Below, one piece after another: positions 6,455 to 60,735 of a stretch of DNA of 64,000 nt. Each line of letters begins with the position of its first letter. Within the stretch, counting starts at the first letter, position 1. The position numbers were made by a program, and so were the translations under genes. The DNA is from Perkinsus olseni (taxonomy: Eukaryota), in NCBI GenBank assembly GCA_013115125.1, contig JABANN010000009.1, positions 62,001 to 126,000 of the forward strand. Reading direction: 5' to 3'. The notes beneath the pieces were generated by a model. It had not been told where the DNA came from. It did not search any database and saw only the letters and a list, made by a program, of their open reading frames with translations.

Positions 6455-7303
6455 ATGGCCCGCCTCATCGTCATTTTCGCTGCCATCGTCGGTGTGTGCT
6501 ACGGTAGTGATGACGACCTGTCAAACGACGACACTCTCAAGTTCGCGGGCCTCCTAGGCGATCCTGATGTTCGTCAATTCATCGACGGCGTCTTTGCTGC
6601 TGCTGATGTACCAGATGACGTGACCGACTCTGCCCAAGTTGGGGCCGCCGAAGGCCGAAGTCTCAGGGATGTGGCTGCGAACGCGTCTGCGAACGCGTCT
6701 GCGAACGCAACTGCGAATGCAAGTGCATATAGCTACGAATATGTCCTGTGTGATAAGTGTATCGACATTAATTCCATGGCCATCGGCAACTACCTTGTCC
6801 AGACGATTCAGTACGCTTGCTTCTGGGGTCCTCTCGCGTCCCCATCCGCGGAGATCTTCTGTGGGTGCCTCAATAAGGGTATCATCTCGCTCGACCAGCA
6901 GCTGAACGGCTACATCTTCACACAGGGCCGTGGCCGTCAGCTTGCGATTGGTATGTGCATTGGCACTAAACAGTGCTCGCAAAAGGACGCCTTCAACTCC
7001 TACTTTAACCCTATCATTCCCAACAAACTTGTCAACTTCAAGAAGTACAGAGATTGCCCCGGCCCTCCCTACCTTTCGTTCGACGCCTGCCTCAGTGACA
7101 TGCTACCAAGATTGCTCTCATTCGCTGCTGACGAGTTGCATAAAGCTTGTCATGAGTATTATTATTATGATTATGACTTGCAAAACTTTTGTGACTACTA
7201 TCACGTCGACGAGCACTTCGCTTACGGTATGGTGCTAGCTTACGTGGACGTCCATCAATATGCGGAGGGCTATTGTCTTCGTGACTATCTCTCATCAAGC
7301 TAA
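6455..7303 (+). CDS. single-exon secreted cysteine-rich protein of unknown function
   Basis: 282-aa ORF from ATG 6455; signal peptide MARLIVIFAAIVGVCYG, acidic pro-region, (ANAS/T)x4 sequon repeat, many Cys; polypyrimidine/AG tract just upstream. Confidence 0.85.
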   Translation: MARLIVIFAAIVGVCYGSDDDLSNDDTLKFAGLLGDPDVRQFIDGVFAAADVPDDVTDSAQVGAAEGRSLRDVAANASANASANATANASAYSYEYVLCDKCIDINSMAIGNYLVQTIQYACFWGPLASPSAEIFCGCLNKGIISLDQQLNGYIFTQGRGRQLAIGMCIGTKQCSQKDAFNSYFNPIIPNKLVNFKKYRDCPGPPYLSFDACLSDMLPRLLSFAADELHKACHEYYYYDYDLQNFCDYYHVDEHFAYGMVLAYVDVHQYAEGYCLRDYLSSS

Positions 7304-8738
7304 AAACGCTCAGAAGTGACTTGCGTTAAGCACTTGGACTGAAGAGGGCCTCGTGTCCCCGTTAGTCGCGAGTCATTCGTAACTAGATTTTTATCACGCC
7401 AGAGTATTCTCATCGACTCGTTCGCTCTGATTGAGCTTTTTCGTTTTATTTCATTTTTTCCGGATTGGTGTGGTCCAGCAATTGGTAGTGATCGCTCTGA
7501 AGTGCTTCCAAACTTGTGGCGTTTATGAGGTTTTTCACAACATCTTATTGAGTGGTGTTGAGCACAGTAGTCGAATGTGGCAGCCGATGGTATCTCCCTC
7601 CATGAGCGGTGAACGCTCGTTAGCTCAGCGGGTTCAATTATGTCACATAATTTACGTGTAACTAGGGGGCTGTCGGTAGGCGGACCGCTAGTAGTATCGC
7701 TGGAAGGGTAGTGTGGAAGGATGGGTCGTGAACCGTGATGTAAGAGTTCTGTTCTGAACGCCAGCATGGCTGGTCGGACGATATCAGTCACGGATTCCGT
7801 GATACGAGAGCACTCGGTAGTTTTCATTCTCATCGGCGCTTGAACTTTAGTCGCTCTGCCCGTACGATTGCGGGAACACGAATCGCTGGGAGCGGTCGGA
7901 TGCAGCGAGGTCGTACGACGGACTCCGAGTCGAGTTGTCGCAAGTGAATTGGTTTTGAGAGGAGCCCAGGCTCAGCAGGTGAGCTGCCCTGGGTTCTTGG
8001 GGCTCCTCCATCTCATCGTACGAATCTGGTTGTATGACTTCATGCCTTGCATACCCGCGGGTTGATTTCCTAGGCGATGATTTTGTAACTCGTGGTGCTA
8101 GTTTGTTTGGTGTTGAGTATCTTAATGGCTCTGCGGAAATGCCGTCTCACTCGTACTGTATGAGTTCGAGTAGTTTATCGTACATTGATCCTGGATTTGA
8201 AACATTCATCAGCAGTGGTTCCGAGAACGACAGATCAGTTTGTTGATACTCTCCTCTAATACGCGGGTCTGCGTGTGATACTGTCAAACTCGGATAGTGC
8301 CGAACTAGCAGACAGCTTGTTCTGAGACAGGATTCATGCGCTTCTGAGGGTTGGCGACACCCGGGGCGTCACGCCCCTCGCTCGGATTGCGATAGATAAG
8401 TCTCAGTCTGAGTATTTTGGGGGATACTCGCCTGCTCATCTCCGCGCGGAGCGGGGATCGTTGTTTTTGACTCAGCTGATTTTTCCAGTCCCTTGGTCGT
8501 TCAGACAATCAATGCTCATGACCTTCCCCAAGCGGTTCGCCGGGCTTCTCCTCACAGTGAGTTTCATTGCGGCCTCCATTTCTACTCAGTGAGAGAAATC
8601 GGATCTTCTTCGGAAGATCCGATCAGCCGTATATTTTCGAGCTCACGAAGATCATCTTCCCTTGTTGTTACGGACCGTCCGCGGGACTGGATACTCCTCT
8701 CGGTGGCGTCGCACGGTTTAACTGCTTCGTGTGTAGAT

Positions 8739-11388
8739 ACTCTGTCTCTCTATCGCTGGGAGCCGCGGGGAGTCCGTGATTCTGAGTAACGGCGTCGAAA
8801 TGCCGGTAGTTGGCCTTGGCACCTTTATGTCCAAGGGTGATGAGGTGGAGAAGGCGGTGTACTCTGCGCTTCAACTAGGATACCGGCACATAGACACTGC
8901 TGATTTGTAATCTGGGTGGGTCGGAGGGAGGTGTTTACTAGCATGACTGTCGCACAGATATATGAACCATGAAAGGGTGGGCAAGGCTCTTAAGCGGGCT
9001 ATCGATGATGGAATCGTCAAGCGCTCTGAAGTATTCCTGGTCTCAAAACTATGGCCGACAGATTATCGGGCCGACGTAATGCGACCCAGGGTCGAAAAAA
9101 TGCTTTCCGATCTGCAAGTTGGCTACTTGGACCAACTGCTGCTGCACATGCCGGAGGCTTGGGATTATCCGGGGGAGTCGGACGAGTAAGAGGGTGAATC
9201 TGATGCGGTTTAGCGGGCGTCAGTATGCCCGGAACGCGGACAGGCTATGTGTGAGCGTCGTGTTTTGCTATTGATACAGTGGTGGGGCGTGTTCTACAAC
9301 TTTGGAATTTTAAAAGGCTAATTCATTCCGTAGATTCTCCACACGAAGGTTCGGTAGAGTCACATGATTGACCATCCACTAGAGTCAGTCTGAAAAGTTG
9401 GGCTGCCGAGGTTGGATTGTCGTTCAGTTACAGTCGCTTCTTCCCGACGACAACTGAAGGGCTCCCTGCGGTCAATGCAAGCCATGACCTCGTCGATACT
9501 TGGAGGGTGCTGGAGGGGCTATGCGAGGAGAGGAAGGTAGTCTGACTAGGGGCCCCCTATTAGAGGGAGTGAGTCACTTCATCGCAGGTCGGGGAGCATG
9601 AATCTTCGTGTACTCTGTGGGTCTCTTGTTAGGAGTAACGACATTCGTTCATGCCAGCTGTAAATCTTGTCGAATTGCGGTGCTCGTTGCGCACAGCTCG
9701 AGCGAATAGACTGTCTGAGCTGCACGTTCGTATATACTGCAGTCTGTGATTGCCCGGTTGAATGAAAGTTCTTCATGTCCTCCTTTCATTCGAGGCTCTC
9801 AACTCGACATTCTCTTGCCCCTAAAATTGAGAATCTCGTAGTAATCAGCCTCGCAACTGTCCGCTGCGGTTGTGTTGAGGTATGCATTGTTCGGCCAATC
9901 TTGGCCAGAATTTCTAAGGGCCTCAAACTCGGCTCGCCACGCCTCTTGCATTGCTGGCTTCGTACTGAGGTAGCGGAGGGGAATCGGTCGTCAGAGTATT
10001 TAGTCTGACGAACCCGAACAACAGACCGCTGCCAGGGTTCGCCTTGGACTCTCACGACCATGTATTATCGTTGCTAAGCCCATGGTCAATTGATTCCATT
10101 CATACAAGTCATAAAATGACTTCCCGGCTCCTACTGCCAGAGCGGGTACCAAGAGAACGTGAGAACCAACGCTATCCACTGGATAGTATCCAGCGCACCG
10201 CCAGTGCCGCACTGGGGCCCCTGTACTTCCATGCAAATTTTCGACGCGATCTGGGTGGCGGTGTTGTACTACCGCACGTCCGCATCTTCGTTCAAAGGTT
10301 CGCTCAATCGGAGTCAGCAACTTTGACATTGTACGGATGAGACACTTGCTGCGTGCGGCTCGGATCAAGCCAGCAGTGAATCAAGTTGAAGTAGTCACTA
10401 GCTAAGCGCTCATTCATCACAAGTCCCTTTCTCGAGGTACATCCCTTTTTGCCACAAAAGGAGTTATTGGAATTCTGCAGAGATGAAGGCGTGGCAATTG
10501 TCGCCTACGCTCCGCTCGGGGCTCCTGCATACCCGTGAGACCTGATTCTCACGAGTCTAGCTACTTTCACGCGAACGAAGGATTTGTTGTTCTAGGTATG
10601 ATCATGATGGGCCCCTGCCTGACGTGCTCAACCACCCCACCATCCGGACTCTCGCTGACAGGCATGGGAAGAGCGCAGCACAGGTAGGCCTCGGGGGCGC
10701 CTGAAGGTACTGTATGCTCACACAGGTTGCGATACGCTGGGCTATTCAAAGAGGGACCATAGTGATACCGAAGAGCGTTCACAGGGCAAGGATCGAGGAG
10801 AATTTGGATGTCTCTGATTTCGAGCTTTCGCTGGATGAGATGGTAAGCATTGCCTTCGGTTCTCTCAAAGGGGATCCCTCGTCCCAATACGGGAATGACG
10901 AAGAGCGATCGGAGCGTACTCCTATTAGGAGTCCTAGCGTCTAAGAAGTACCTCCTAGTACCTATTAGGAATGTTATTACGCGCGTACTCCAGCTGAGTA
11001 AGCTGGAGCTTTCTGTTTAATCTGTCATCCGTTCGCACGGACTGGATGGTATCAGTCGGTCTGTTCTTAGGAGGAGCGGTTTTTTATCCCTCTTGCGTCG
11101 CTTGAATTTCGATAGATCCATGTTGGATCAATAATCGCTGCTAACTTCAACGATTAAGTTAGGCGGTAAGGTTGAGCATCACATGCCCTTCGGCAAGGTC
11201 AGTGACCTCAAGTCACTCGAACGCCGGAGTCGTTGCCGCTCTGTACAGGAGATCTGTGGCTTCAGGCGTATATCGATGATATTGGCCGAGCCCCGGAAGA
11301 TCACATTCGTGCTTTCACCCTTCCCTTTGCTGCGGATGGCAGCAGTATCTTCGAACAGACTAAGTTGACCTTGATGGAGGAACTTTAA
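8739..11388 (+). CDS. aldo-keto reductase (spliced; 5' end uncertain)
   Basis: Exons [16 protein letters not shown]...GYRHIDTA / [11 protein letters not shown]...FLVSKLW...[10 protein letters not shown] / DTWRVLE / VRSIGVSNF...PAVNQVE / VHPFLPQ...AYAPLG / [27 protein letters not shown] / AYIDDIG...LMEEL*; D-Y-K-H catalytic tetrad present. Confidence 0.93.
10172..10193. mobile_element. putative transposon excision footprint, 8-bp site CTATCCAG
   Basis: C-TATCCA-C-TGGATA-G-TATCCA-G, perfect pattern, in an AKR intron. Confidence 0.75.
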
Positions 11389-14500: not shown

Positions 14501-17500
14501 TCCTCGTCTTCTGAGCGACAGAACGTCTCCACTAGTTGCCAGCCCACATCTCATCAGAGAAAGGATTCTACCGCCGCTCGCAGATGTAGTGTTGAAGCGC
14601 GTGCGTGCTGCCGCACCGACCAGGCTTATCAGGTTGCTCTGTCCTTCTCGGCGTTGTGGTCATCAGCGTTGCCGTGCTTGCTGATGGCTCTGAAGTACGA
14701 TGGAGTCTGCGATCCACAGTACTTCCAAGGCCGGATATGGCCGCGTATCCGCCCTCTGTTCAGCGCGAAGGAGATATCTGTCGGTAGGTCGCGCGAGTAG
14801 ACGGCTACTTGTGTTGCATGTCTCCGTCGAGTCTGGGCCGATTTGGGCATATGTGAAGCCTAGGGCGTCGGAGTTCATTATTTGTAAGTGCCGGAGCCCT
14901 AGGATCCCTTTTGCAGCATGTAGAAGGCCTAGGGCTTTGGCGCTTGTAGATATGAGAACGTGTGAAACATGAGCTGATATGCTAGTTCTAATGGCTCAGC
15001 AGACTATCTCGTGGTACGGCACTGTTGATCTGCCGCTGAGAGCTGACCAGGGGTTAGCGATGATACTCTTCCTATTGCTGTTTTCTCAGAGTGCGTGACC
15101 ATCCTCATACGTAACCTCGATCTCTTCATCAACAACACGACGGCCAAGGACGCCAGTGACGTGCTAGTACCATTCGTATTGCGGTGTATCGAGTTGAAAG
15201 AAGATACCATCATCCAGGAGGTAGGTTGGACTCACTTTCCCCTACCCGCGGCACCAGCTCTTATTTCTTCTTACTAGTGCGTTATAGTAGGGACATATGA
15301 TCCGATCTGAATTGCTGCGGTCATTTTAGGTTTTCACCCGATTGCCCCTCCTTCAGCGACGGTTTGAATACACTACCTTGCAGCATGTTTTACTGCCAAG
15401 GATGCTGAAAATGATGACGGATGCCAGCGAGGGGGTTTCAACGAGGATCCGATGTCTTATCATCAACTGCATGCAGGAGATGCTTCCGGTAGGCGGTTGG
15501 GCTCGTGAAGGAATCGAGCGTCCGGGGGCGACTGAGTAGTGATTGAGAGACGGCAGTTATTCTCATCGTGCCGTCGGTGGAGTTGCTGTACGTCAGGTGC
15601 TGGATAATACGACCGTTGTGGGCCCTCTACTAAAGGCGTTGACGGAGACCACCACTACTGATAGCTCCTCTCAGGTAGACGATTGAAACGTGAATGGAAC
15701 GCATTCCTCGGAGAAGCTTGTGTCGCAAAAGAAACTATGTCTCAGCGATCTCATGGATGCTCGTGCGTCCCGCATCAGCACAGGGTGAAGTGAGTACGAC
15801 TGGTTCTCCGGTTTTATTTCTACTTTATCATGTGAACCATCCCCGCGCGAGGCTCGTCCCGAGTCGGGACTTCATGAGCTCCGTTGCTGCTAAGATCGAC
15901 GATGTAGTCGAATCGATACGACGAGAGGTGGAGCGACCAATTTAGGACGACCTCGGCTGCGAACGCAGGTCTCATGAGACCTCTCACCATGATGAACTTC
16001 GTCATGGTCTTCTCGTTGTAGCCCACACCGCGTGAGAGAATCTTGAGAGTGGCGCTCTACCCTACTAGGGGGTGTACCTGACGTTGGAGAGCGACTCTGC
16101 CGATTCGGCAGTGCCGAACGAACTCCCATAACGCTGGCTAGGTCGAGTCGTGGCCCACGACTCGTGGGTGGGAGTCCGATCAGCCTAGAGAGTACTGACG
16201 CATAAACAGCTCAGTCGAGCTTCTACTGGCTTTATCAAGACTGCGCTCTTTGTCAACATCCATGTAGCCTGGCGACGTCAGGCTGACGCTATGTAACTTT
16301 AAGTTTGGTGATCTGATAAGGATGACGCCAGTAAGCGTACGAAATAGATGGAGGCTCAGTATTAAGGGCGGTACTGAGAAGGCCTGTGGGTGTTAAATAA
16401 GGTTGTATGCTACGCTCTCTTAAAGAGAGGCAGTGGTAGCCAAAGAGAGTCTCTTTGGCTACCACTACCGGAGGGGTGGCGGGAACATGAAAAAACATGT
16501 ACTTCTCTGTCTCCAACGAGAAGTGGCACTCAGTCTTCGCATTATTTTGTGGCCCAATTCACAGCGGAATAGCCTTGCAGCACCAGTAACAAGAGAAACC
16601 CTCACAGGTTAGCGACCATTCTGCCAACGTGGGTGTTCTGAAACCGGGCTCGAGGATCCTCTCCTGGCTTCACGAGAAGTGCCCCATAATGATCAATTGG
16701 ACGCTGCTCCCATTAAGAACACCAGTGTGGACTTAGTAGGCGGAGGATCAACCCCTCAGCGTCAAAGCCTGGTCTGAAGTTCAATGCTACTACTAGTAGC
16801 AGGGCTTAGCCCTGCTACTAGCATGGCTAGCATTATGCTAGCCTTTTGCCGTGCATGTCCGCGTCGAGTAATGGCAGCAGCAAGCCAGTTCTCTCGACCT
16901 GGAAATAAGGTCCCGAGCAGCAGGACAGCAGGGCGGTCCGGACAGTATACAGTCACCTTGATGTGGGTCGGAGGTTCTCAGCCCATTCGAGCTGCAGCGC
17001 CTCAGTTAGATGATTGTGTTGCGAGAAAGTGCTGCTTCTCATGCACTACGGGTCTTCGAATATACCAGTGCTCCACTTGTTCGGGAAGGGGTGTTTGGTT
17101 CCGGAAACTTATGCGTAACGGATGGTATGAAGTTGCCTACTTTATACCATTTCTTACGCATTAAGTTGTCTTCGTTGGAAATTCTCTGTTGGCAAAGTTC
17201 GAAATCTAGTCTTCGCCGGCTTCGGCTGGGCCGGAGGTGCTCTTATTCCGTCCAGGGAGTTTGGCATGGGTTCATTCTTCAGGTGGTGGCGGCACTGGGT
17301 GAAATTTACGAGAAGATCAGTGAGAATCTTGGTGCCAAGCTTACGGCGACGAAGGTGAGACCTTGAGAAAACAGGTTAGACTCTGGGACTAACAAAACTC
17401 CAATTCGAACGAAGTTGCGAATTCCGTGTTTCGAGCACGTAAGCATCGTAAGACGTCCTCAGACTTACATTTATGCCGAGTTCTTCACACTTTGTGCATA

Positions 17501-22163: not shown

Positions 22164-22507
22164 AAGCGTCGAGCGCTCCGAAGATCATCTTCTTCCTGTT
22201 GGTCAGCATCCGTTCGTCAGTTGTTGCTTTGCTAGCGTCCATTCGCTCTAGTCGATCCCCAAGCTTTCTTCATGTTCTGCCCAGTCTATCAGCGTGCCCA
22301 CCGCGAATGAACCAAAGCTAACTAGCCTCGAAGCGGCAGCCGATGGTCCCTGGCCCTGCTTCGCCTGGTGTTAAATCCCCATTGGCTACCACCACGAAAT
22401 GGTTCAGCCTATGGCAGTACAGAGATAGGATGTGTCGTGGAACACCTTCGACTAGCCAAATCTCTCAGTCCAAGGTCACCACGTTCAGTCGTTGAACGAG
22501 TCTCGTT

Positions 22508-22529
22508 CTGCGAACTTCGCAGTGCGAAG
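22508..22529. mobile_element. putative excision footprint, site CTGCGAAG
   Basis: C-TGCGAA-C-TTCGCA-G-TGCGAA-G, perfect. Confidence 0.75.
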
Positions 22530-23036: not shown

Positions 23037-23058
23037 ATGCTGTTACAGCATTGCTGTA
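23037..23058. mobile_element. putative excision footprint, site ATGCTGTA
   Basis: A-TGCTGT-T-ACAGCA-T-TGCTGT-A, perfect. Confidence 0.75.
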
Positions 23059-24105: not shown

Positions 24106-27100
24106 ATGGCTGCAAGCTCCAGTACGGCCGCCGTTGATGACAGCGTCCGGGTGCCTCTCACAGTAGCCAATGGTGGTACGGCAGCAGAAAGTTCACCGCG
24201 GATAAAATACGCCGTTGTTGCGAGAGGTGAATGCTCGGGCCGGCTATGTCAAAACGGCCACTGTTGCGTTTCAGATAAGACTGTCCTTTGCGAATACGCC
24301 TTTGTTGGTGGCAACTTCACGAGTGTCGCCAGGGTGAGCAGCCGGGGTTTGTTTGCGAATTCAGGGAATTTTTTTTGGTGACATGTGACGTCGTTGTGAC
24401 GAGAAGAGAATTAAAGTGAGAAATTCTTACTTTCTGTCAACAATCAAGTTTTCTCACATGATAATCACTAGCGATCTCAGACGTTACCAAAAACTCTCTT
24501 GGTTAAACCTTTTGTTCACTTTCAATAATTATTGCGAAGGATCATTGGCTGCTGAAAGTTTGTCTTTGTCGTTGAACGACGAGAAAGGCAACACTCTCGC
24601 TGTTGGAATATCTATCCTGCTTCCCAGCTAGGCGAGTTGTTGGTTACGGTCTGATCATTTCCAGCGGTTATGAAAAGCGGTGCAAAGAAGCGAAGAGTTA
24701 GTGCAAAAAAGGTATACAAAGCGTTTACTTTTTTCCCAATTTGCAGTAAAATTTGAGTTCTCAGCCCCGTTGCTATGAGAGACCCAACTCTGAATCTAAG
24801 CTCATTAGTGTCATCCATGACGAGGCAAGATACCGTTATGGTCGGTACTTTATTTCTCTGACTCAGGTGCTCCTGGCGAAAATAAGTCCGATGGCGTCCG
24901 GAGTCTCAGGTGAGGTTAGGAAGAGCTACGTTTATGATGGGTAAGCAGGAAACGTGAGCGTATCTTTCTGTTCATGTCAAGTTGACTTGAGCCCTAAGAT
25001 ACTCCGTGGTGATACCTCGAATACAGTGTCACCATCTGACTGTGGTGATACCTCGAATACAGTGTCACCATCTGACTGTGGTGATACCTCGAATACAGTG
25101 TCACCATCTGACTGTGGTGATACCTCGAATACAGTGTCACCATCTGACTGTGGTGATACCTCGAATACAGTGTCACCATCTGACTGTGGTGATACCTCGA
25201 ATACATTGTNNNNNNNNNNNNNNNNNNNNNNNNNNNNNNNNNNNNNNNNNNNNNNNNNNNNNNNNNNNNNNNNNNNNNNNNNNNNNNNNNNNNNNNNNNN
25301 NNNNNNNNCAGTGTCACCATCTGACTGTGGTGATACCTCGAATACAGTGTCACCATCTGACTGTGGTGATACCTCGAATACATTGTCACCATCTGACTGT
25401 GGTGATACCTCGAATACATTGTCACCATCTGACTGTGGTGATACCTCGAATACGTTGTCACCATCTGACTGTGGTGATACCTCGAATACATTGTCACCAT
25501 CTGACTGTGTGGTGTTACGCTTGACTTTGTCAACAATCAATCCTGTGCTAGCAGTTACACATTCCACTATCATTCGCTGTTGACCTCCAGCGTACCAGGG
25601 AATAATCAACCTCCGTGTCGCATAACCTTTTTGTGCATGGCGGACGAGCAGATGGGCAGGTAACTTCTTATTTCTCGAAGGGCGCTAAATTCGTCTGATC
25701 TGATTGGATTTTTTTCGACAGTGAGTGATATTGCATGCAGAGATCGGACTGAGTACGAAAACATCTTATTGGATATCCGATTCGATGTTAAATATCATAT
25801 TTAGCGATGAATTCCCAGAGGATACGTTCCACCGTCCGCAGTCACCATGTTACTTGGGCCTCTGAGGGCGTGGAAATCAAAAATTATCGCACTTCCGTCT
25901 TGCGCGCTTTTTTCGAGCCCACGCTGTACCAGGAGGGTATGAGATGGTCTGCTCTGTTCCTTCCGCTCGCTCGGGTAGCTTAGTAACGCAACACAGAGCT
26001 CATCGTTAAGTTGTTACCACATCGGCACCAAGTCCTACTATGCCGGCGACGGCGTTGGGCTTTAAACTGACACACACACGTTTAGCATAGCGTTCGCGCC
26101 CGGCATGGCGGTGCTCCTCAGGCAGCGGCCCTTCGAGTTTCTCGAGGATTTGAAGAATAAATTTGAAGAAAAGTGAGCAGCTTCAGCACCCCTTTTGCCG
26201 ACGGCCTGCGATTTCGTAGGTATGACTATGCTATAGTGCGAGCGGCGACGCCTCTGCAGTTCAACGGAGAGATGCAGCAGCCTGTGCTTGCGAGGTTGAT
26301 GGAGTTTCACAACTCGCCTGAGGTAACTGTCGATGGCGATGGTCGCCCGACTCGAGTTTGTCCTCCACCAATGGGAATCGGTCACGCCGAGTCCGGGTTA
26401 CGGACTCGCCTAACGCGTGGAAAACGGGATGCATAGTCTGATTTTTAACTTGTCTAATTAGGTTCGACGATGAAGTTCAAACCCGCCCACTTTCACGCTG
26501 CTCCTCAGGAATTTCCTCCTCCAATGCGACGAATAGGGACACCTCGTCAATTTAGAGACGGCGGTGTCCCTCGACCTTAAATGTCCCCACGTCTTTTGCT
26601 CATACTGTGAACGCATAGCTATGTAGATACTCACGACTGAAAAGTTTCAGTGAAAACGTCTAGACAATAACGTACTACCGAACGAGATTACTCCGTATCC
26701 TCGGTAGTACTTATTGTTTTCGTATCATATCGTCACTCAAACAGTAACAACCTTCCGGAGAGATCCTGCGCTCTCGTAAATCCGTCTTCCGGCTATGAGA
26801 GCAACGAGTAAGGTTCTACTCGCAGCCTCATGATTTGTACCCCTCAGCTAAACAGTTAACACCGACGGGCATTATGTCCGGGACATATTGTCATGTGCGT
26901 CAACTGATGCTGTAGAGCTTCTGAGAAGACCTGGGTTAGGTCTGTCGTTCTTCCTTGAAAGCTTGACAACCTTCACAAGTACTTGTGATATTACCAAACC
27001 GTATTACTCGTTAGGTGTCAACACAGCCGTCCCGTCCCAACTCAAGGAGCTTCTTGACAAACTCACGGTAGCGAACTGTGTTCAACCAGTACCTAATCCT

Positions 27101-32411: not shown

Positions 32412-32983
32412 CTGCACTTTTTCTGTTCTTATTGCAACTGTGAGATCGAGCATGCCTCTAGTCCTGTGATACGGGGTTGCGTGATTGTGGCTTTGGACAG
32501 AGGAATTCTAACGACATCAAGCCTGCAGCCCGAAGGGTTCAAACAACGCTGGTCGTCAGAAGCACGAGCCAAACATATTCGCAACGGAGTGCGTGTGAGC
32601 TCGTACTCTGACGGCGTTAATAACAAGTGGTTGGCAGATAGTTTGTTAGAAGGGCATCCCTCGCTATTGTTCAGACTTGGAAACTCTCAGAGTGCAAAGA
32701 GAGTCGGGAGAGAGCTGGTGCTGTCACAGCATTGCTGTGTGTGAGTTTGAAGTCCAACGGCGACAGTACGGCTTAGTTAGGCTAGCAGCACCGACGTACC
32801 TTTCTGAGGGGGATAAGTTCAACCTGTTGGATAGGCTCTGTTTATCAAGCCAAAGGACGTTGCTCTCAGAGCGAGGTCATCGTCAGCTGGGAGCCGATGC
32901 TGATGTCGAATATCCTGAACCGAACCGGTTGATTCTGTTCCACCTCGCACTCATCCATTTCAACGCAAATGCAGCGTAGTCGT

Positions 32984-46588: not shown

Positions 46589-48916
46589 CTACAGTGTACG
46601 ACGGCTTCTTTTGGCTTTGCTAGCGATGGACTCTCTGTCGGTGGGCGGACGCTTCCGAGTGTTCACCTCCTCAGTGTCCATCTCTTGTGGAACTATATGA
46701 ATCACCACGGCAGTGAGATTGTCGTCAGAGAGGAGCTCATAGGCTCGACGAACAACTCGAAGCGCGCATGCATCAGGTCGAATGAGGGTCAACGGTGACG
46801 GAGGGGCAAGCAACGAGGCTACCTGGGCACGAAGACACTCCCTTAGGGAAGAACGACTACCGCTGTCGGCGAGCCGCAGTGGTAACAGTAGCGATGCACT
46901 TGCACGAAGAAGATGAAATTTTCTGCCTCCACTAGGGAATCGTGAATTCACATGCAGAGACTGCAGCAACTCACCAGGTTATCTGACTGGACGTCGAACA
47001 CGCCGTCCGATGCCAAGACGACGGATCGATCCACGGCGGGGTCGAGGTCGTACACCTTGACTTCGGGATGATTATTGATGACCGTACGAGGGGCCTTCAG
47101 AGGGAGGTCGCCCAACGACCGCGACACGGCGAGGCCCCATTGAAGCACCTACGGCAGACAGCACTGAGCAGGGAGCAGTTCGGCTGAGCCGTGGTACCTT
47201 GTCACCAACAACGACAGTTTCCGGAGTGAAGACTCGCCAGGTGCCGTTGATCTCGATTACGATTCCTCCTTTGCTTTGGACCCAGCGCCGTTCATCCTCC
47301 CGATTGGGTTTGTGGTCCTCCGTCAATCTCACGCATTTCGTACCGTCGCCCTTGACGAGGACAGCCCGGGAATCTCCCGCGTGCGCGACGAGCATCTTCA
47401 GCCGCTCCGCTGAGTCAGTCCACATGATCACCACCAACGCCGTGCTGCCTGAGCGAAATCCAAGTTGGCCGAGTCGCCGCCGAGACGTACCATCAGGAAC
47501 GCCTTCAGCGGATGCAATGGCCAAGAAATCATCATCAGTAAGTACGAACGCTTGATGAACACTATCCTGAAGCCGCTGTTCGAATGGGGTGGCGGTATCT
47601 TTGGCTGCGAGGCAGTGAGATATGTTCTCGCCAATATGAGCAACCTGATTAGCGAGAAACTGTTGCTTCTACGTTGTTGCTTATGGTCGAGGCAAGACGA
47701 GAAGGAGTGTAGAATCTATTCTCTTCTCCTTTCAAGCTTACTCCTCCGAGGGGAATCAGCTATGCACGCATACACAAGGCGATCGGCGCATAATGAGTAA
47801 CAGAAACACATGGAGACTCACAGTTGGCGAAGCATGCAAGGGAAACGCAGCACGCCTCGGGAATTACCAAGTAGTCGGCGCACGCTGGGCCGCTGTGACC
47901 ATCGAAGACGGCAACACCGTGCACTGGGGGATCCGTCCCCGGGGTAACGAGAGACAAGTCCAGCACGAACCTTGCAGTGGCACGGAACGAATGCTGTATA
48001 AAACGCCAGCCGAGAGAGTTTCTCTCAGCAACGCTGCTGCTGGATAATCGGGAGTTATTGTGTTTGGCGGTAGTGCTCTTACCTGTCCTCATTGGCCCTC
48101 TTATTCCCCTTCCACGTCTCAGCTCCGAGCCATATTTTCATTCCAGGATCTCCGAGGCGTATAAGCTTGGGAGCGCCGTCACTGACGCCCGTCTCGCTCA
48201 GCGCTTTCAACTGCTCGGCGTGAGCATGGACGGAGCCGGCGTGATCGACGTGAGTGGTAGTCGACGACCGCAGACGCTCCTCGAATTTCTCTTGCAACGA
48301 CCCTATCAGGGAGCCCAGTCGGACAGGTTGAAGCTTCTGGAGTCACCCAAAGCAGCCTCAGCTTGCTGAAGGGTCCACTCCAACTTCTGCCGTCTCGCCG
48401 CCAAAGAAGAGCCCTCTGTAGTCTCCTCTGTCGCAGCGTCGCCGTGGTTCAAGCTCGTCGGGAAGTTCTCAAGGGCAGCACGCGTGCCTATGATTGTCTG
48501 GCGTAATTCTAACCGGCGCGAGAGGGTTTCTTGGTCGAGTTTCTGAGAGCATTTGGTGACCGTTCGAACAGAAGCGAAGCTCGTCAGAAGACACTCTCCC
48601 TCTGGGAGTACAATACTATATAAAATGATATAAATAATAATCTATAATAATAAAACTACTTCCCTCTGGAAGTATTACCCACCATCCCGGCCCACCTCCA
48701 AATTCGCTCTGTGCAGATCGGATACTTCCTCGTGCCTTCGCAAGTGTTCGAGATCAGCGAAGCGTCGACGGCACAAGTAACAGACCATTCGAGCGGCCTT
48801 AGCGGTCTCTGAAAGTAACCGTTCAGGGGCAGCCCCTCGAAGGAGGGGCTACCTCCCCCTGTGGACTTCGCGTCTGTTGCAACTCGTTCCACCGGGGTTG
48901 CCTCCGCTGCTGGCAT
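46589..48916 (-). CDS. PPM/PP2C-family protein phosphatase (spliced)
   Basis: KGNKRANEDR, VAVFDGHSG, DG/STA, AHAGDSRAVL, LTEDHKP, GLAVSRSLGD, VVLASDGVFD, SDDNLTAVV motifs in order. Confidence 0.95.
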
Positions 48917-50072: not shown

Positions 50073-50888
50073 ATGACAGCGGCTCGGCTTGAGTACTGCG
50101 CAGTGGCTCTCCTGGTCCTCCCGCTGATCCAGTGTGGGCCCTACCCGAAGCCTCAGCGTTTCGGAGATATCTCCGAGAAGACCAAGTTCATCACAGTCCA
50201 GCTGCCTAGGAATGCGAATGGCCTTGTAGGGAGTTCTGTCCCTTTTGTAGCTCCCGAGGGATGCTCCCCAACTATCAAGAGCATCGCTGAGAACTACTGC
50301 GTGAACGGCACATACGATGCCGGGAGTACGATGGACCTCGCTATGACTTTAAACGTATTTGACGTGACTATTCCCACCAGGACGGTTACTCTGGGGATTC
50401 AAACAAACTTGAACGAGGGGAATGCAACCACTGTAACAGCTATGACCGGCGGGTGTGCCACCATACTGAAGAAGACCATCGTCATCTTCTTAATCGACGG
50501 GGAGATCACGGCATGCACGTCGGGCGGCGGAAAGGGGAAATACGACCCCGCCCTGCCCGGCTACGTGTCCGCTATCGATCTGAGCGGCCAGCTCAAGTTC
50601 ACCTCGGGTAAGAAGAACATCACCAACTACAACTACTCTTTGCCGGGCTACGTCCACGCTGGTAATCGCTTCGACATGGGTATGGCTGCCTCTGTCTACA
50701 ACAGCAGTGGTGACCCCAAGGGGATAGGGATCAATTCCACCTTCTTCATCACTATGAACAATACTGCCGGATCTTTGTTCGACTGGCGTATCTTTGTTGG
50801 TCTCTCGACTGACAGCTGGGACTATCCATTGCCGGCCGCTCATGTTGATATCGCAATCGTTGACACCGTGATACATCTCAAAGTGTGA
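50073..50888 (+). CDS. secreted protein, family A copy 1 (intronless)
   Basis: 271-aa ORF with signal peptide; clear paralog of 56454-57245 and 58142-58969. Confidence 0.9.
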   Translation: MTAARLEYCAVALLVLPLIQCGPYPKPQRFGDISEKTKFITVQLPRNANGLVGSSVPFVAPEGCSPTIKSIAENYCVNGTYDAGSTMDLAMTLNVFDVTIPTRTVTLGIQTNLNEGNATTVTAMTGGCATILKKTIVIFLIDGEITACTSGGGKGKYDPALPGYVSAIDLSGQLKFTSGKKNITNYNYSLPGYVHAGNRFDMGMAASVYNSSGDPKGIGINSTFFITMNNTAGSLFDWRIFVGLSTDSWDYPLPAAHVDIAIVDTVIHLKV

Positions 50889-51624: not shown

Positions 51625-52406
51625 ATGGTGACCCTAACCTGCAATATCCTCACGTTGGTGTCCGTCCTTACCTCGGCGATGGGCTTGGAAGCCGCAAACA
51701 ACTTCAACGTAATCGTAGCCATTCGACGCCGAAATGTATTACACCCGCTCTCCTTCAGATGGGGGACCTCAGAAGAGCGCCTCACCAGCACAACCAGCCC
51801 AAGCCCCCACGGACGGTATGTGGCTGGAGACTTAGCGCATTCTTTCCGAGTTATCGCTTTTTCAACTGAGGGGCCCTCCTCGCGTATTTCTGTCCCGTTT
51901 GTGTCCCTTTTGATGAGCCTGGCGCAGGTCACGGGTGATGCCATGGGATGCAAGATAGAGTATGGCGACAGCTCCATCGATCTTCGTAAAACCTGTAATC
52001 AAGACTATTACCTCCGCTGGGAGGCCGACCAACCGCGGAGCATGTCCGCAACTTTCTGGTGATATGCGTCGTTGATTGTTCGAGTTCATCGAGTGCTACT
52101 CTCAGGGTTTTCCCTGATGAAACGTATCATTTCTCCTTCGTGGACGGTGCGCGTTCGACGAAATGCGCTGGATCGGACAATAAGATGGAGACATTGTACG
52201 CTAGAGTCTGTCCCTTGCCCCCGTTGATGGACTCCATCGAGCACGCCTTTACTGGCGGTATGAATCAAGAAAAATGCTTAATGCTGGCTGAGAAGATCGA
52301 AGACTCTCCGCTCGAGGGATACGTCAAAGGCAATTGGTTGAAGCAGTTTTTTCTCGAACGAATGTCGGAAGCATTTGAAGTTGATAACGTAAAGTGCTTG
52401 TACTAG
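51625..52406 (+). CDS. secreted protein, family B copy 1 (spliced)
   Basis: Signal MVTLTCNILTLVSVLTSAMG; exons GCKIEYGDSS...RWEADQPRSMSATF and YARVCPLPPLMDSIEHAF...NWLKQFFLERM; paralogous to copies at 54.7 and 59.9 kb. Confidence 0.8.
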
Positions 52407-54697: not shown

Positions 54698-55554
54698 ATG
54701 GTCGTGATCTCCTATCCCACTTTGGCAGTGCTGGCGATTCTGCCGATGGCTCTACGGGCTGCCTCGAAGCCACAAGTAAGCGTGAGCAGCAACAACCGAA
54801 GTGCATCCTCGTTTCACCCGTCAGATCGAAGCACCAGTTCGAGCGCCTCGGTTGATCAGAGGAGTAAGTCCGTCGGAGCTGAGAGCTTCTCCACAAAGCA
54901 TGTCATCCTGGCGTAGATCAAAGCTGACACAGAGAGCTGCATAATCGATTATGTGAGAGTTCCATCTACCTACACAAGAGCTCGGATGATTATCTCATTC
55001 GCTGGGAGGCAACTGAACCCCGGGATATGTCCGCATACTTCTGGTGATAATCATCAACTCTGGTTTTCTTATGGCCGATCTTCATTACCAACAACGTGTT
55101 TGTACGCACAATTTTTATCGTCAACTTGGTGGCTTTGCACCGCTGATTCTCGTCATCAATTCAGTGGTTGTATGGCCGAATTTTTCTTCCGTCAATTCCG
55201 TCTTCATGGCCGATTTTTATCATCAACTTAGTGCTTTTCAGGATAAATGATGATGATACCATGGCTGTCCGTTTCGTGGACAGCGATCGCGCAAGAGAAG
55301 ATAATGGTCCATCAGTTGACATGCAAGAGAAATACGCCAGAGTCTATCCGTTCGCTCCGCTGATCAACACCATTAAGCAAGCATTCCGAAGCGGCATGAG
55401 TAGGAGAGGCTGCTCTAAGCTAGCTAATACCATAAAAGCAACTCCTCCCGAGGAGTACAAAGATGCAGACAATTGGATGGGAGAATTCTTTGTCGGAAGG
55501 ATGGCCGAAGCATTGGAGCTAGTCGGGAGAAACCGGAATGTTCAGCAGATGTGA
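54698..55554 (+). CDS. secreted protein, family B copy 2 (spliced)
   Basis: Signal MVVISYPTLAVLAILPMALRA; IKADTESCIIDY, RWEATEPRDMSAYF, KYARVYPFAPLINTIKQAF...NWMGEFFVGRM; middle exon may be degraded. Confidence 0.75.
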
Positions 55555-56453: not shown

Positions 56454-57245
56454 ATGACAGCGGTTCGGTTAAGCTATTGTGCAGTGGCTCTCCTGGTCCT
56501 CCCGCTGTTCCAGTGTGGGCCCTACCCGAAGCCTCAGCGTTTCGGAGACATCTCCGAGAAGACCAAGTTCATCACAGTCCAGCTGCCTAGGAATGCTGAC
56601 GGGCTGTTAGCAAGTCCCTCCACTTTCACAGCTCCTCCGGGCTGCTCCCCCGACGTCCGAGTTCTCGTTGAGAACTACTGCGTGAGCGGCACATTTGCCG
56701 TGAAGACCACAGTAAACCTTAATATCAACTTGAATGTATTTGACGTGGAGATCCCAAATAAGAAGGTTGTAGTGGGTCTGCAGACCACCTTAGACGAGGG
56801 AGATGCCACGACTATAACAGGTTCGACCGGTGGGTGTGCCACCATATTGAAGGAAACCCTCGTCGTTACGGCATGCACGTCGGGCGGCGGAAAGGGGAGA
56901 TACGACTCCGCGCTCTCGGCCTATGTTTCGGACATCGGCCTGAGCGGTCACCTGAAGCTCGATCTGGGCACCGAATCTACCACCGAACACGACTTCGGCT
57001 TGCCGGGCTACGTCTATGCTGGTGATGACTTCGACATGGGCATGGTTGCTTCAGCCTTTAACAGCAGTGGTGACCCCAAGGTGTCGGGCATCAACGCGAC
57101 GTTCTTGACCATCATGGACACTCTCAATGCCTCTCTATTCGATTGGCGTGTCTACACTGGGCTGACGGTGGATATCTGGGACTATCCACAACCGGTGCTT
57201 CACCGCGAGGTCGAATTTATCAATACCATTATTCATCTCGTTTAA
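56454..57245 (+). CDS. secreted protein, family A copy 2 (intronless)
   Basis: 263-aa ORF; N-terminal ~45 aa nearly identical to copy 1; lacks a 7-aa segment (around IFLIDGE) present in copies 1 and 3. Confidence 0.9.
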   Translation: MTAVRLSYCAVALLVLPLFQCGPYPKPQRFGDISEKTKFITVQLPRNADGLLASPSTFTAPPGCSPDVRVLVENYCVSGTFAVKTTVNLNINLNVFDVEIPNKKVVVGLQTTLDEGDATTITGSTGGCATILKETLVVTACTSGGGKGRYDSALSAYVSDIGLSGHLKLDLGTESTTEHDFGLPGYVYAGDDFDMGMVASAFNSSGDPKVSGINATFLTIMDTLNASLFDWRVYTGLTVDIWDYPQPVLHREVEFINTIIHLV

Positions 57246-58141
57246 GAGAAGTTCCCTGATCGGCCATGTGAGGCGTCATCATTTCGAGATTAACACGGGC
57301 ACGGCTTGAGTCGAGAGTACACTGCAAGCTCTGCAGTATGATTGTATGGACTATTATTCTGTCGATGCTTTGTAGCACCCATCATCATATGAGTCTTGAT
57401 TAAGGGCGAACTGTTTCATCTTGAGGGCGTTCAGAGTTGCACGCTCGGTGATGGTTCAGTCGGGTTTCTCTTGAGCCCACCAGCTCCTCGACGGTGCATG
57501 CTGCATTCGAGCTGATAGTGTTATTCAACCCTCCCAGAAACGTGTCTGGAGAACGAGCGTAGAACTCTCTCTTACAGTGTTGAGGAAGCACGCTGCTGTA
57601 CGGGTCCTAGCTAGACAGACCAAAAGGCGAGTAGTCAAGCGGCGAGCATATGCCCCGCGAAGATCCCCTTTTGTACCATCGGGGCCCGAATAGAGAACAT
57701 TCTTAAATGGAACCAACCTGCAGGTGAAGCGACTCTACCCAGGCTGCTACCATGGTCACCACGGCATGGTGTCTTGCCACCTGTGAAATAGCATCGGCGA
57801 GAGCATCAAAACGAGTCAGCCCGGACGCTAGACGTGGATCTGTCCCCAAATCGTGTGGCGCAAGGTGTTGGCCCGAGCGATTTGCAGCCAAGTGGCCAAA
57901 CCTCGGTCTATTCGATTGGGGCATGACTAGCCGATTCGCCCCGCGCACAATACAGTGAAATGACGGGGAGAAGCTATCCAGTAGGGGAGCTCTTGCAGGG
58001 CATGTCTTAGATCCCTCAGCACGCACATACTATGCACATGCGTGCTTCAAGTATCCTGGGACAGCCCAACGGATGAGTCGCTTCTTTCGTCTGATGAGGT
58101 TGTTCTCTCAGGCTGCCCACTTTGATACTCGTAGGGAGCTA

Positions 58142-58969
58142 ATGACGGCGTGCCGGCTCAACTTTGGTCTGGCCTTGGCAAGGCCGCCTTGCTAGTTCTC
58201 CCCCTCCTCCAATCTGTGTCCAGCGCGAGGCCCAGGCGTTTCGGCAACATCTCGGAGAGGACCACTTACCATACAGTTCAACTGCCCAGGACAGCAGAGG
58301 GCCTCGTAGCAAGCCCGTCTGCTTTCAGCTCGCCTGTGGGCTGTTCCCCCAAAGTCAGGAGTGTCGTGGAGTACTACTGCGTCAGTGGTACGTACAGTGT
58401 GGGAGACGAAGTCGACCTAACTATCAACTTAAACCTATTCGATGTGAAAGTCCCTACTAAAAGCGTCACGATGGGCATGCAGACCACGTTGAACCAGGGG
58501 AATGCAACTACGATAGTAGGGCTGGCCGGCGGGAGTGCTACCATATTGAAGAAGACCCTCATTATCCTCCTACTCGACGGGGAGATCACGGCGGAAACGT
58601 CAGGCGGCGGGAAGGGGGCATACGACTCCGAACTGTCCGCTTATGTTTCCGACATAGACTTGAAAGGACAGTTGAAACTTGTTTCTGGTACCACAAATAT
58701 CACCGAGTACAACTACTCCTTGCCGGGTTACGTCTATGCTGGTGATCTCTTCGAAATGGGTATGGTTGGCACTGTCGTGAAGAGCAGTGAGGACCCCGAT
58801 GAGCCTGGAGCCAATGCAACTCTTGATCAAAATGGATACCATCAAGGGCTCTCTGTTCGATTGGCGTATCTACGCGGGTCTCATGATTGATTTTTGGATC
58901 TTCCCGGCTGCACCGGTAATCCACGTTGAAACCGACATCGTTAACGACGTGTTGCACCTCAAAGTGTGA
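58142..58969 (+). pseudogene. family A copy 3, disrupted by a +14-bp scar and a 2-bp deletion
   Basis: ATG 58142 aligns with the paralog starts; scar at 58171-58192 gives TAG at 58193; second frameshift near 58820 (ACT-CTTGATC versus paralog ACG-TTC-TTG-ACC); C-terminus ...VLHLKV* matches copy 1. Confidence 0.88.
58171..58192. mobile_element. putative excision footprint, site GGCCTTGC, inside a coding sequence
   Basis: G-GCCTTG-G-CAAGGC-C-GCCTTG-C, perfect; absent from both paralogs. Confidence 0.85.
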
Positions 58970-59875
58970 GCGCCCTTCTGTCCCTTCGAAGGCTTCGAAA
59001 CGGTATATCAGCTCCGATGCAGTCACTCAAAGATGAGCGTGCGCTCCGCTCCGCTAGTGGCTACGCATACAATTTCATATCATAACCATTCACTTGGATA
59101 TTCGCCCGATGCTCCGAAGCGTCCATAACTAGAGTCTTGACTTGAGAGAGATTTTCTCAACTGCCAGGCCGATCAGAGTTACACTAGGGGTGGATCGGGG
59201 CGTTTCTCATCTCTCAACAGCCCTCTTGTTTGGTCGATGCAATAATCGTCAACAGGAAGTCATCGGCGGTAATATCGGACCGCCGCAACTACCGAGACGC
59301 TACAACGGTCACAAATAAGCACGGCGATGATTCCAGGGAAAGAACGGTACCCGACTGAGCAGACTTACAATGCAATGAGGGTGCACTCAAAGCACCAACT
59401 GACAGCGGCAGGGAATTGAATTTTGATTTGGGTATGTTGTGCAGCTGTGACTCGATGCTGTGAACCACATGTTACTCACCGCAAGCGGCTATTTGTTATT
59501 GTCCGAGCCGCTCGGATTCCGCTGGTGCGCTCGGACCGAGCGCACCTTCCCGCTAGAGCCATGATTGATCGGGCGCGCTCGTTGCCGCGCTCAAGAAATT
59601 TTGAGTTACCAGTTTCCAGTTTTTGAGTCGCGAAAACTGGAGACTTTCTGATTTCCACGAAAACGGCAGAAGTCCGCTCCCAAGATGCGCTCCGCAAATT
59701 GACTCCATAAAATACACCTGGTGCTGTTAGTCCCAACTCACCGTGAGCACCTCGATCTTGGCCGTGGACTCGTAGCAGCAACTTACTGGGCACAGTTGAG
59801 CACAGAGCAGCCGAGTCTCAAGTGCGCAGTAAACGAGGCTGTGAACATTGTCAGGAACACCTAGTATCTCACCTT

Positions 59876-60735
59876 ATGCCCTCCTTTCTGCACTCCATCT
59901 TGAACCTGACGACGGTTCTGAGCTCGGTTATGGCCTTGCGAGGTGCGGTAACCGCGAGTGCCCGATCGTATGCCAGCAGACTGTTCACCAGGCTCGAACT
60001 TCCGTCCAAGTGTCTCATCCGGCCCAGCAGACCAGAAAGGTAAGGGGAGGCGTGTGCGTGAGACTCTCACAGTGAGAGTTTCTAGTCTAACGCCGGTTGC
60101 TCCGGCTTAGTTAGACTCTTGCCGATGTGCTCAGTTGGAGGCTCTCTGTAGCGTTGAAATGCAGTGCACTCAGACAGGTTGTCAAGAAGCTTGCATTCGG
60201 TGGTGGGAATCGTCGTCCAATCCCCTCGGCTCAGAATCTGCTGGACTCCATATCGAGGCTGACGCGGAGTCCTGCAGAATCATCTATCCGGACAGCTCCG
60301 TGTATCTGCACATGAGTTTCGAAGTCCAACTCGTCCGCTGGGACGCGAGGGAACCGCAGAACATGTCCGCAACCTTCGGGTGAGTTCCAGCATTGGTTTT
60401 TTACACCAGATGACTTCTTCAGGACCTTGAGAAATCGGACAATGAATGTCCGCTTTACGAACGGCAACCGGGGGCGAAGCGACGAAGGACCCGTCAAGGA
60501 CATTATGAAGAGATACGCAAGCTTCTATCCCTTCGCTCGTCTTAAAGGCCCAATCAAGCAGGCGTTTAAAGATGGAATGGGGAGAGAAGCATGCACGGAC
60601 TTGGCCGCTAAAATTAGAGCAACCTCTCCCGGAGGGTATGAGAATTCTACTGACTGGGTCAAAGAGTTCTTCCTCATAAATATTGATAAGGCTTTGAAAG
60701 TGGCTGAACGACATACGAAAGTTAGGAAAGTTTGA
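59876..60735 (+). CDS. secreted protein, family B copy 3 (spliced)
   Basis: Signal MPSFLHSILNLTTVLSSVMALRGA; IEADAESCRIIYPDSS...RWDAREPQNMSATF; RYASFYPFARLKGPIKQAF...DWVKEFFL. Confidence 0.82.

Follow-up and report, generated by a model that had tools for sequence, protein, structure and literature searches.

What made the 22-bp palindromic sequence that interrupts one gene of Perkinsus olseni just behind its first codons, in which direction did the change run, and is it this sequence that has broken the gene? The gene, copy 3 of a family referred to here as family A, lies in a 64,000-nucleotide stretch of genomic DNA (the window). We read the 22-mer as a hairpin-type excision footprint, hAT-like in character, and copy 3 as a strain-specific pseudogene of a P. 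olseni lineage, with a probability of roughly 0.78.

A first, sequence-only reading had quoted 14 extra bases behind 12 codons of copy 3, and the window confirms the letters, the ATG at 58142, the 12 codons and the TAG at 58193. The start codon occupies 58142-58144 and codon 12 is the TTG at 58175-58177. Translated from this ATG, copy 3 reads ...ELMTACRLNFGLALARPPC*, with the tail LALARPPC and the stop at codon 18. The CTA at 58192, followed by GTT CTC, begins the long frame of copy 3, which the list of open reading frames gives as open over 58135..58890. The features are collected in Table 1.

Table 1. Features of copy 3 and its intact paralogs, in window coordinates.
Feature	Position	Strand	Basis
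Family A copy 1, intact, 271 codons + stop, DUF6740 secreted-type	50073..50888	+	ORF; PF20525 38.6 bits; tblastn
Family A copy 2, intact, 263 codons + stop	56454..57245	+	ORF; PF20525 38.5 bits
Contigs of X7 and X8 (~1035 letters), 0 differences to the window; possibly RNA (guess only)	58110..59100	+	
Copy 3, first 12 codons (MTACRLNFGLAL), start-codon frame	58142..58177	+	matched by P0024 residues 17-28 (MTACRLDFRLAL)
22-bp scar, GGCCTTG + GCAAGGCC + GCCTTGC (7 + 8 + 7)	58171..58192	.	derived from the 8-mer GGCCTTGC
14 extra bases	58178..58191 (58172-58185 is an equivalent placement)	+	missing from another isolate's allele
Premature TAG, ATG frame	58193..58195	+	translation of the ATG frame
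Copy 3 body, 210 codons, open, shifted relative to the ATG	58192..58821	+	91% identity to P0024 29-238, no gaps; PF20525 29.2 bits
Second lesion: 2 bases missing (TT in another isolate), frameshift	between 58820..58821	+	contigs, alignment, P0024
Last 49 codons, then the TGA conserved in the family (58967-58969); ATG frame again	58820..58969	+	90% identity to P0024 239-287
Premature TGA of the body frame, due to the 2-base deletion	58888..58890	+	

The scar has a strict internal order. With T standing for GGCCTTGC, its 22 bases are the first 7 bases of T, the full reverse complement of T and the last 7 bases of T, with 0 mismatches, and this 22-mer is unique within the window. The palindromes in it are centred on G 58178, which complements the final C of the 8-mer, and on C 58186, which complements its initial G. 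The same architecture recurs with other 8-mers. Exact 7+8+7 sites number 14 in the 64-kb window, as compared with 0 in each of five shuffles, and the count rises to 25 when one mismatch is allowed (0 in the shuffles) and to 34 when two are allowed (0, 0, 0, 1 and 0 in the five shuffles at two). These counts exclude the rows produced by 25210-25308, an assembly gap of 99 N that gives false hits in self-complementarity scans.

When lengths of 5-12 were combined with offsets of 0-2, the enrichment was found solely at length 8 with offset 1 (14 vs 0) and all other combinations were at chance. A looser scan, in which a 6-mer is followed by one base, its reverse complement, one base and the 6-mer again, gave 18 sites, all with the 1+1 spacing, vs 0 in 10 shuffles. 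Direct 6-mer repeats likewise peak at a spacing of 14 (32 vs 12.2), and spacings of 7 or 8 show no excess.

The target preference of hAT elements follows the consensus nTnnnnAn. Among the 8-mers underlying the 25 scars, T at position 2 or A at position 7 accounts for 22 of 50 symmetrised observations against a background of 24%, a mild preference that leans towards the hAT consensus; GGCCTTGC itself has neither the T nor the A. Some scars are chained: two share base 22508 (22487-22529), two abut at 10193/10194 (10172-10215) and two are 50 bp apart (16097-16168), as if some short segments had been visited more than once. The scars at 23037-23058 and 32718-32739 are built on the near-identical 8-mers ATGCTGTA and ATGCTGTG, which suggests either that a segment was duplicated or that this target is preferred.

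Removal of the 14 bases had been said to restore a reading collinear with the paralogs. The N-termini quoted for the two paralogs agree with their open reading frames, and at the level of the peptide the statement holds: GCC TTG CTA GTT CTC CCC CTC in scarless copy 3 and GCT CTC CTG GTC CTC CCG CTG in copy 1 both encode A L L V L P L. The collinearity is incomplete, as scarless copy 3 is one codon shorter than copies 1 and 2 (19 residues up to the Q, compared with 20). The nucleotide alignment of the paralogs therefore supports the scarless reading but gives a net difference of +11 nt and not +14. A count of 19 is found in P0001 and P0024 too, both of them intact orthologues, so the missing codon belongs to the copy-3 lineage and not to the lesion.

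The direction proposed for the event, from 8 bp to 22 bp, is borne out by comparison across isolates and with database proteins. In X15, another sample of the same organism as the window, a contig of 803 letters covers 58017-58821 with 43 substitutions and lacks exactly the 14 bases, placed at 58172, at a depth of 33.6 of 33.6. P0024 (P. olseni FOZ63_033874, 287 aa) reads MTACRLDFRLALLVLPLLQAVSS... and passes from residue 28 to residue 29 without a gap at the scar site, and P0001, a partial protein of 213 aa annotated as P. olseni, reads MTAGRLDFRLALLVLLLLQ through it. The scar's internal logic, the scarless paralogs and the intact allele of another isolate thus fix the direction in three ways: the 8-bp site is still present in P. 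olseni, and the 22-bp form derives from it by insertion. At 58171 X15 has A where the window has G, and since the inverted copy in the window carries the complement of G, the scar arose on a G-bearing allele.

Indels are the commonest type of assembly error and copy 3 is otherwise well conserved, so that both lesions might be sequencing or assembly errors of the window assembly. We consider the chance of this negligible. Contigs from X1, X7 and X8, which come from three studies, carry the window version and show 0 differences to it over both lesions, letter for letter, and a palindromic triplication involving 14 bases is not a typical base-calling error. As the read evidence consists of assembled contigs, in which rare variants are dropped, a scar-free second haplotype may remain in the window's own strain.

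The scar had also been credited with knocking out the gene. It does shift the frame after codon 12, so that translation stops at codon 18, but a separate deletion breaks the gene as well. A three-way alignment of copies 1-3 has a 2-column gap in copy 3 near 58820, and in tblastn the matches to copy 3 fall into separate frames, one at 58186-58824 and the other at 58820-58966. TT follows 58820 in two X15 contigs, in agreement with the loose end of the long X15 contig, and residues 238 and 239 of P0024 cross the two window frames with no residue lost. The body frame ends early, at the TGA listed in Table 1, because of the 2 bases missing after 58820. This deletion lies 640 bases downstream of the 14-base insertion, and the sum of the two (+14 - 2 = +12) puts the tail of copy 3 back in the frame of the ATG. 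The sum rescues nothing, as the ATG frame has already ended at 58193 and the 210 intervening codons lie in another frame. The two lesions are either both present or both absent in each data set: X1, X7 and X8 carry both, and X15 and P0024 carry neither. With the second frameshift present in the same data sets, the scar cannot alone be credited with the knock-out.

From the stop at codon 18, and from a body frame that has no ATG before about residue 113, we infer that the copy 3 protein is lost. Could copy 3 nevertheless still work? A 29-nt GT..AG mini-intron (58167-58195) would restore the frame, as 29 mod 3 = 2 and both end dinucleotides are present; an alternative start or ribosomal frameshifting might also give access to a body frame that is open for 210 codons, and Perkinsus mitochondria are described as decoding frameshifts (PMC9550989). 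That mechanism concerns organelle genes, however, and the late first ATG of the body frame argues against an alternative start. The mini-intron itself is disfavoured, as the 14 bases are retained, with 0 gaps, in the contigs of X7 and X8, although their RNA nature is guessed and rare forms are lost from contigs. In any case the C-terminus is cut short by the second frameshift, and we regard a working copy 3 as very improbable. The picture is instead that of a polymorphic pseudogene, with disabling frameshifts (stops at 58193 and 58888) in the window and an intact frame in X15 and P0024.

The substitution pattern fits a gene that selection maintained through most of its history and that was disabled at a late stage, although the counts are small. 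For copy 3 against copies 1 and 2, dN/dS is 0.26 with dS near 1.0, and for copy 1 against copy 2 it is 0.33. Between the window and X15, copy 3 shows 14 synonymous changes in 132 sites and 14 non-synonymous changes in 393 sites (ratio about 0.34); the 71 bp of non-coding sequence upstream of copy 3 show 9 changes. That the 22-mer is perfect is no proof that it is recent: with a divergence of roughly 5% per lineage, a 22-bp sequence should have gathered about 1.2 changes, and the chance of a clean scar is estimated to be about 0.3.

All three copies of family A score above the gathering cut-off of 27 bits for DUF6740 (Pfam PF20525), with matches that span only profile positions ~310-439 of 532. 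The body of copy 3 is 91-95% identical to named P. olseni database proteins. Among 1.84 billion proteins, the family comprises 20 representative clusters at E <= 0.001, and the named members that were looked up come from P. olseni, P. marinus and P. chesapeaki; by sequence, family A is small and, among these named members, confined to Perkinsus. A bacterial PAS protein was the weakest among the matches listed and is probably spurious.

A hydrophobic N-terminus and many N-x-S/T motifs suggest that family A encodes secreted glycoproteins. The structural model of copy 1 (50073-50885, pLDDT 81) has an N-terminal helix followed by a long-stranded beta meander. A Foldseek search of this model against the PDB gave nothing at E <= 0.001, and the best hits of a wide VIA-align search were outer-membrane-type beta-barrels at Z 5.3, within the noise range of the tool.

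The surroundings contain a second paralog family, family B, with ORFs of ~135 residues at 51999-52403, 55147-55551 and 60316-60732 (all +), mutual identities of 39-42% and no Pfam match. The family B ORFs are interspersed among the three genes of family A, which makes this a tandem array of mixed composition. A PP2C phosphatase domain ORF at 47075-47668 (-; E = 1.6e-17) is the sole confident Pfam match outside family A among 44 window ORFs of 127-305 residues, which were picked from the 75 window ORFs of at least 120 codons. Beyond PP2C, only a sub-threshold match to B3_4 was obtained in this set, and none of the 44 ORFs matched a transposase.

Copy 2 equals the first ~248 residues of P0003 (NCBI FOZ61_000542), as judged by eye. 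In that protein the C-terminus conserved in the family is replaced by 21 residues encoded just upstream of copy 3 (57243 to about 58014-58079); the annotated splice is probably wrong, and the broken copy 3 may have led to it. The model of FOZ63_033874 starts at an upstream in-frame ATG equivalent to window position 58094. The X7 and X8 contigs begin at 58110 and 58118, beside a pyrimidine tract with AG, and extend about 50 letters beyond 59100. The tract and AG could represent a trans-splice acceptor, which would leave 58142 as the first ATG. X7 and X8 have no cover on 57900-58105 and differ in depth between the copy 2 and copy 3 contigs, a pattern that hints at transcription at most.

The order of the bases in the scar would follow from a simple route, and we infer both a transposon and this hairpin route from the sequence of the scar. 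A cut-and-paste transposon with an 8-bp target duplication would have entered at GGCCTTGC, within the signal-peptide codons, and would have left in the manner of hAT elements, through DNA hairpins on the flanking DNA. The tip of each flank hairpin would be the complement of the duplicated base adjoining the element. The left flank strand would thus read, after excision, as the first 7 bases, the complement of base 8 and the inverted rest, and the right flank would mirror it. If each hairpin were opened 8 nt or more away from its tip, the resulting 3' tails would be the 8-mer and its reverse complement. These tails could anneal over 8 bases, and fill-in would give 7 + 8 + 7 = 22 bp, 14 bp more than the original site. 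The fixed length of the scar would then be set by the length of the duplication and not by precise nicking. The locus has several marks of such a footprint: the scar derives from a single 8-mer, its palindrome centres lie where they are described for Ac/Ds (PMC5873905), and X15 has an empty, single 8-bp site.

A different origin would involve no transposon. In this account the scar is a templated insertion made during the repair of a break or a stalled fork, by polymerase-theta-type snap-back or template switching that copied the 8 bases first inverted and then direct. The insert indeed consists of local sequence only. The 64-kb window yielded 0 candidate elements when it was searched for 8-bp duplications flanking terminal inverted repeats, and the four runs (X1, X7, X8 and X15) contained no occupied site at the copy 3 scar locus. 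Template switching should, however, give variable lengths and offsets, and the window shows the 8-mer with a 1-base offset alone. The palindrome centres lie as in the published signature of hAT hairpins (PMC5873905), and the mild T2/A7 preference of the 8-mers may also speak against this account, which we regard as quite improbable. We keep to excision of a hAT-like element through hairpins as the preferred reading.

Do scars of this kind spare exons? The first reading had argued that a gain of 14 bases always shifts the frame, which is correct (14 mod 3 = 2), and that scars therefore pseudogenise redundant gene copies and are purged from essential exons. This second part draws on one case and is unproven. 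Only 1 of the 25 scars with at most one mismatch (1 of 34 with at most two) clearly splits a long reading frame, namely the copy 3 site. Removal of 14 bases at the 25 scars gave a mean spanning frame of 31.1 codons, vs 31.2 and 32.3 when 13 or 15 bases were removed, and it merged long frames only at 58171 and, marginally, at 10172. Scars fall in positive ORFs in 2 of 34 cases, compared with the about 17% of the window that such ORFs occupy (P = 0.056); this figure, obtained with a self-trained codon model that is weak and scores opposite-strand ORFs alike, is crude and not to be relied on. The ORF at 7303-7971 (-), which holds the scar at 7637, had no homologue found and is probably not a gene.

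Copy 3 offers a natural case in which a transposon footprint would have helped to make a null allele, an ordinary kind of event in an unusually tidy form. The 22-bp scars of the P. olseni genome are not confined to junk DNA, and they add to the differences in gene content between isolates. The affected gene belongs to a Perkinsus-restricted family of secreted type in a commercially important parasite of molluscs (shellfish), and the 14-bp length difference provides a simple genotyping marker for telling lineages apart. A tentative and somewhat doubtful extension is that annealing of fully inverted target-duplication tails might be the default repair of transposon hairpin breaks in Perkinsus, adding 14 bp per visit. 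If so, the scars would act as an obligatory frameshift mutagen and, in tandem arrays, would be a main reason why secreted-protein genes are lost in a strain-specific way. Each scar would moreover record its own ancestral state, which would allow gene losses to be given a direction and tallied between isolates with no need for an outgroup.

In place of a hAT element, the agent might also have been a MULE (Mutator-like element) or some other transposon that duplicates 8 bp, with the mechanism of scar formation otherwise the same. The MULE Muta1 resembles the inferred agent in its duplications of 8-9 bp and in its flank-hairpin chemistry, which it shares with hAT, Transib and RAG (PMC5499845). 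Yet more than 90% of Muta1 excisions in yeast are precise, unlike the footprint-rich pattern seen here, and the part of the account available to us describes no stereotyped 22-bp product (PMC5499845). The palindrome centre with a 1-base offset is documented for Ac/Ds (PMC5873905), and the available part of PMC5499845 makes no such statement for MULEs. A MULE-type agent thus appears unlikely, and a hAT-like element remains our preferred candidate.

Among the papers listed on Perkinsus transposons and footprints and on the P. olseni genome, none describes such scars, as judged from titles and abstracts. The closest likeness is with the Ac/Ds system of the hAT superfamily, for which excision footprints are described in plants, Saccharomyces cerevisiae and Candida albicans (PMC5873905). 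Ac/Ds and the P. olseni scar are alike in the 8-bp target duplication, in the use of microhomology and in P-nucleotide insertions, palindromes whose centre is the complement of the base adjoining the element; both also leave the empty donor site with more bases than before (PMC5873905). They differ in origin, as the Ac/Ds footprints were obtained by experiment (PMC5873905) and the P. olseni scars are natural. They also differ in diversity: in the same account, the footprints of Ac/Ds in Candida were of 28 kinds, none with arms longer than 3 nt, and yeast gave a broad range (PMC5873905). In P. olseni, by contrast, one product dominates, in which the whole 8-mer is inverted and the arms are 7 nt long on both sides. 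In plants, excision of Ac/Ds or Tam3 leaves a few extra bases in coding sequence and thereby a stable null or altered allele; such footprints vary in length and some stay in frame. The +14 product of P. olseni, unlike these plant footprints, always shifts the frame, and its setting is a tandem secreted-protein family in a protist parasite.
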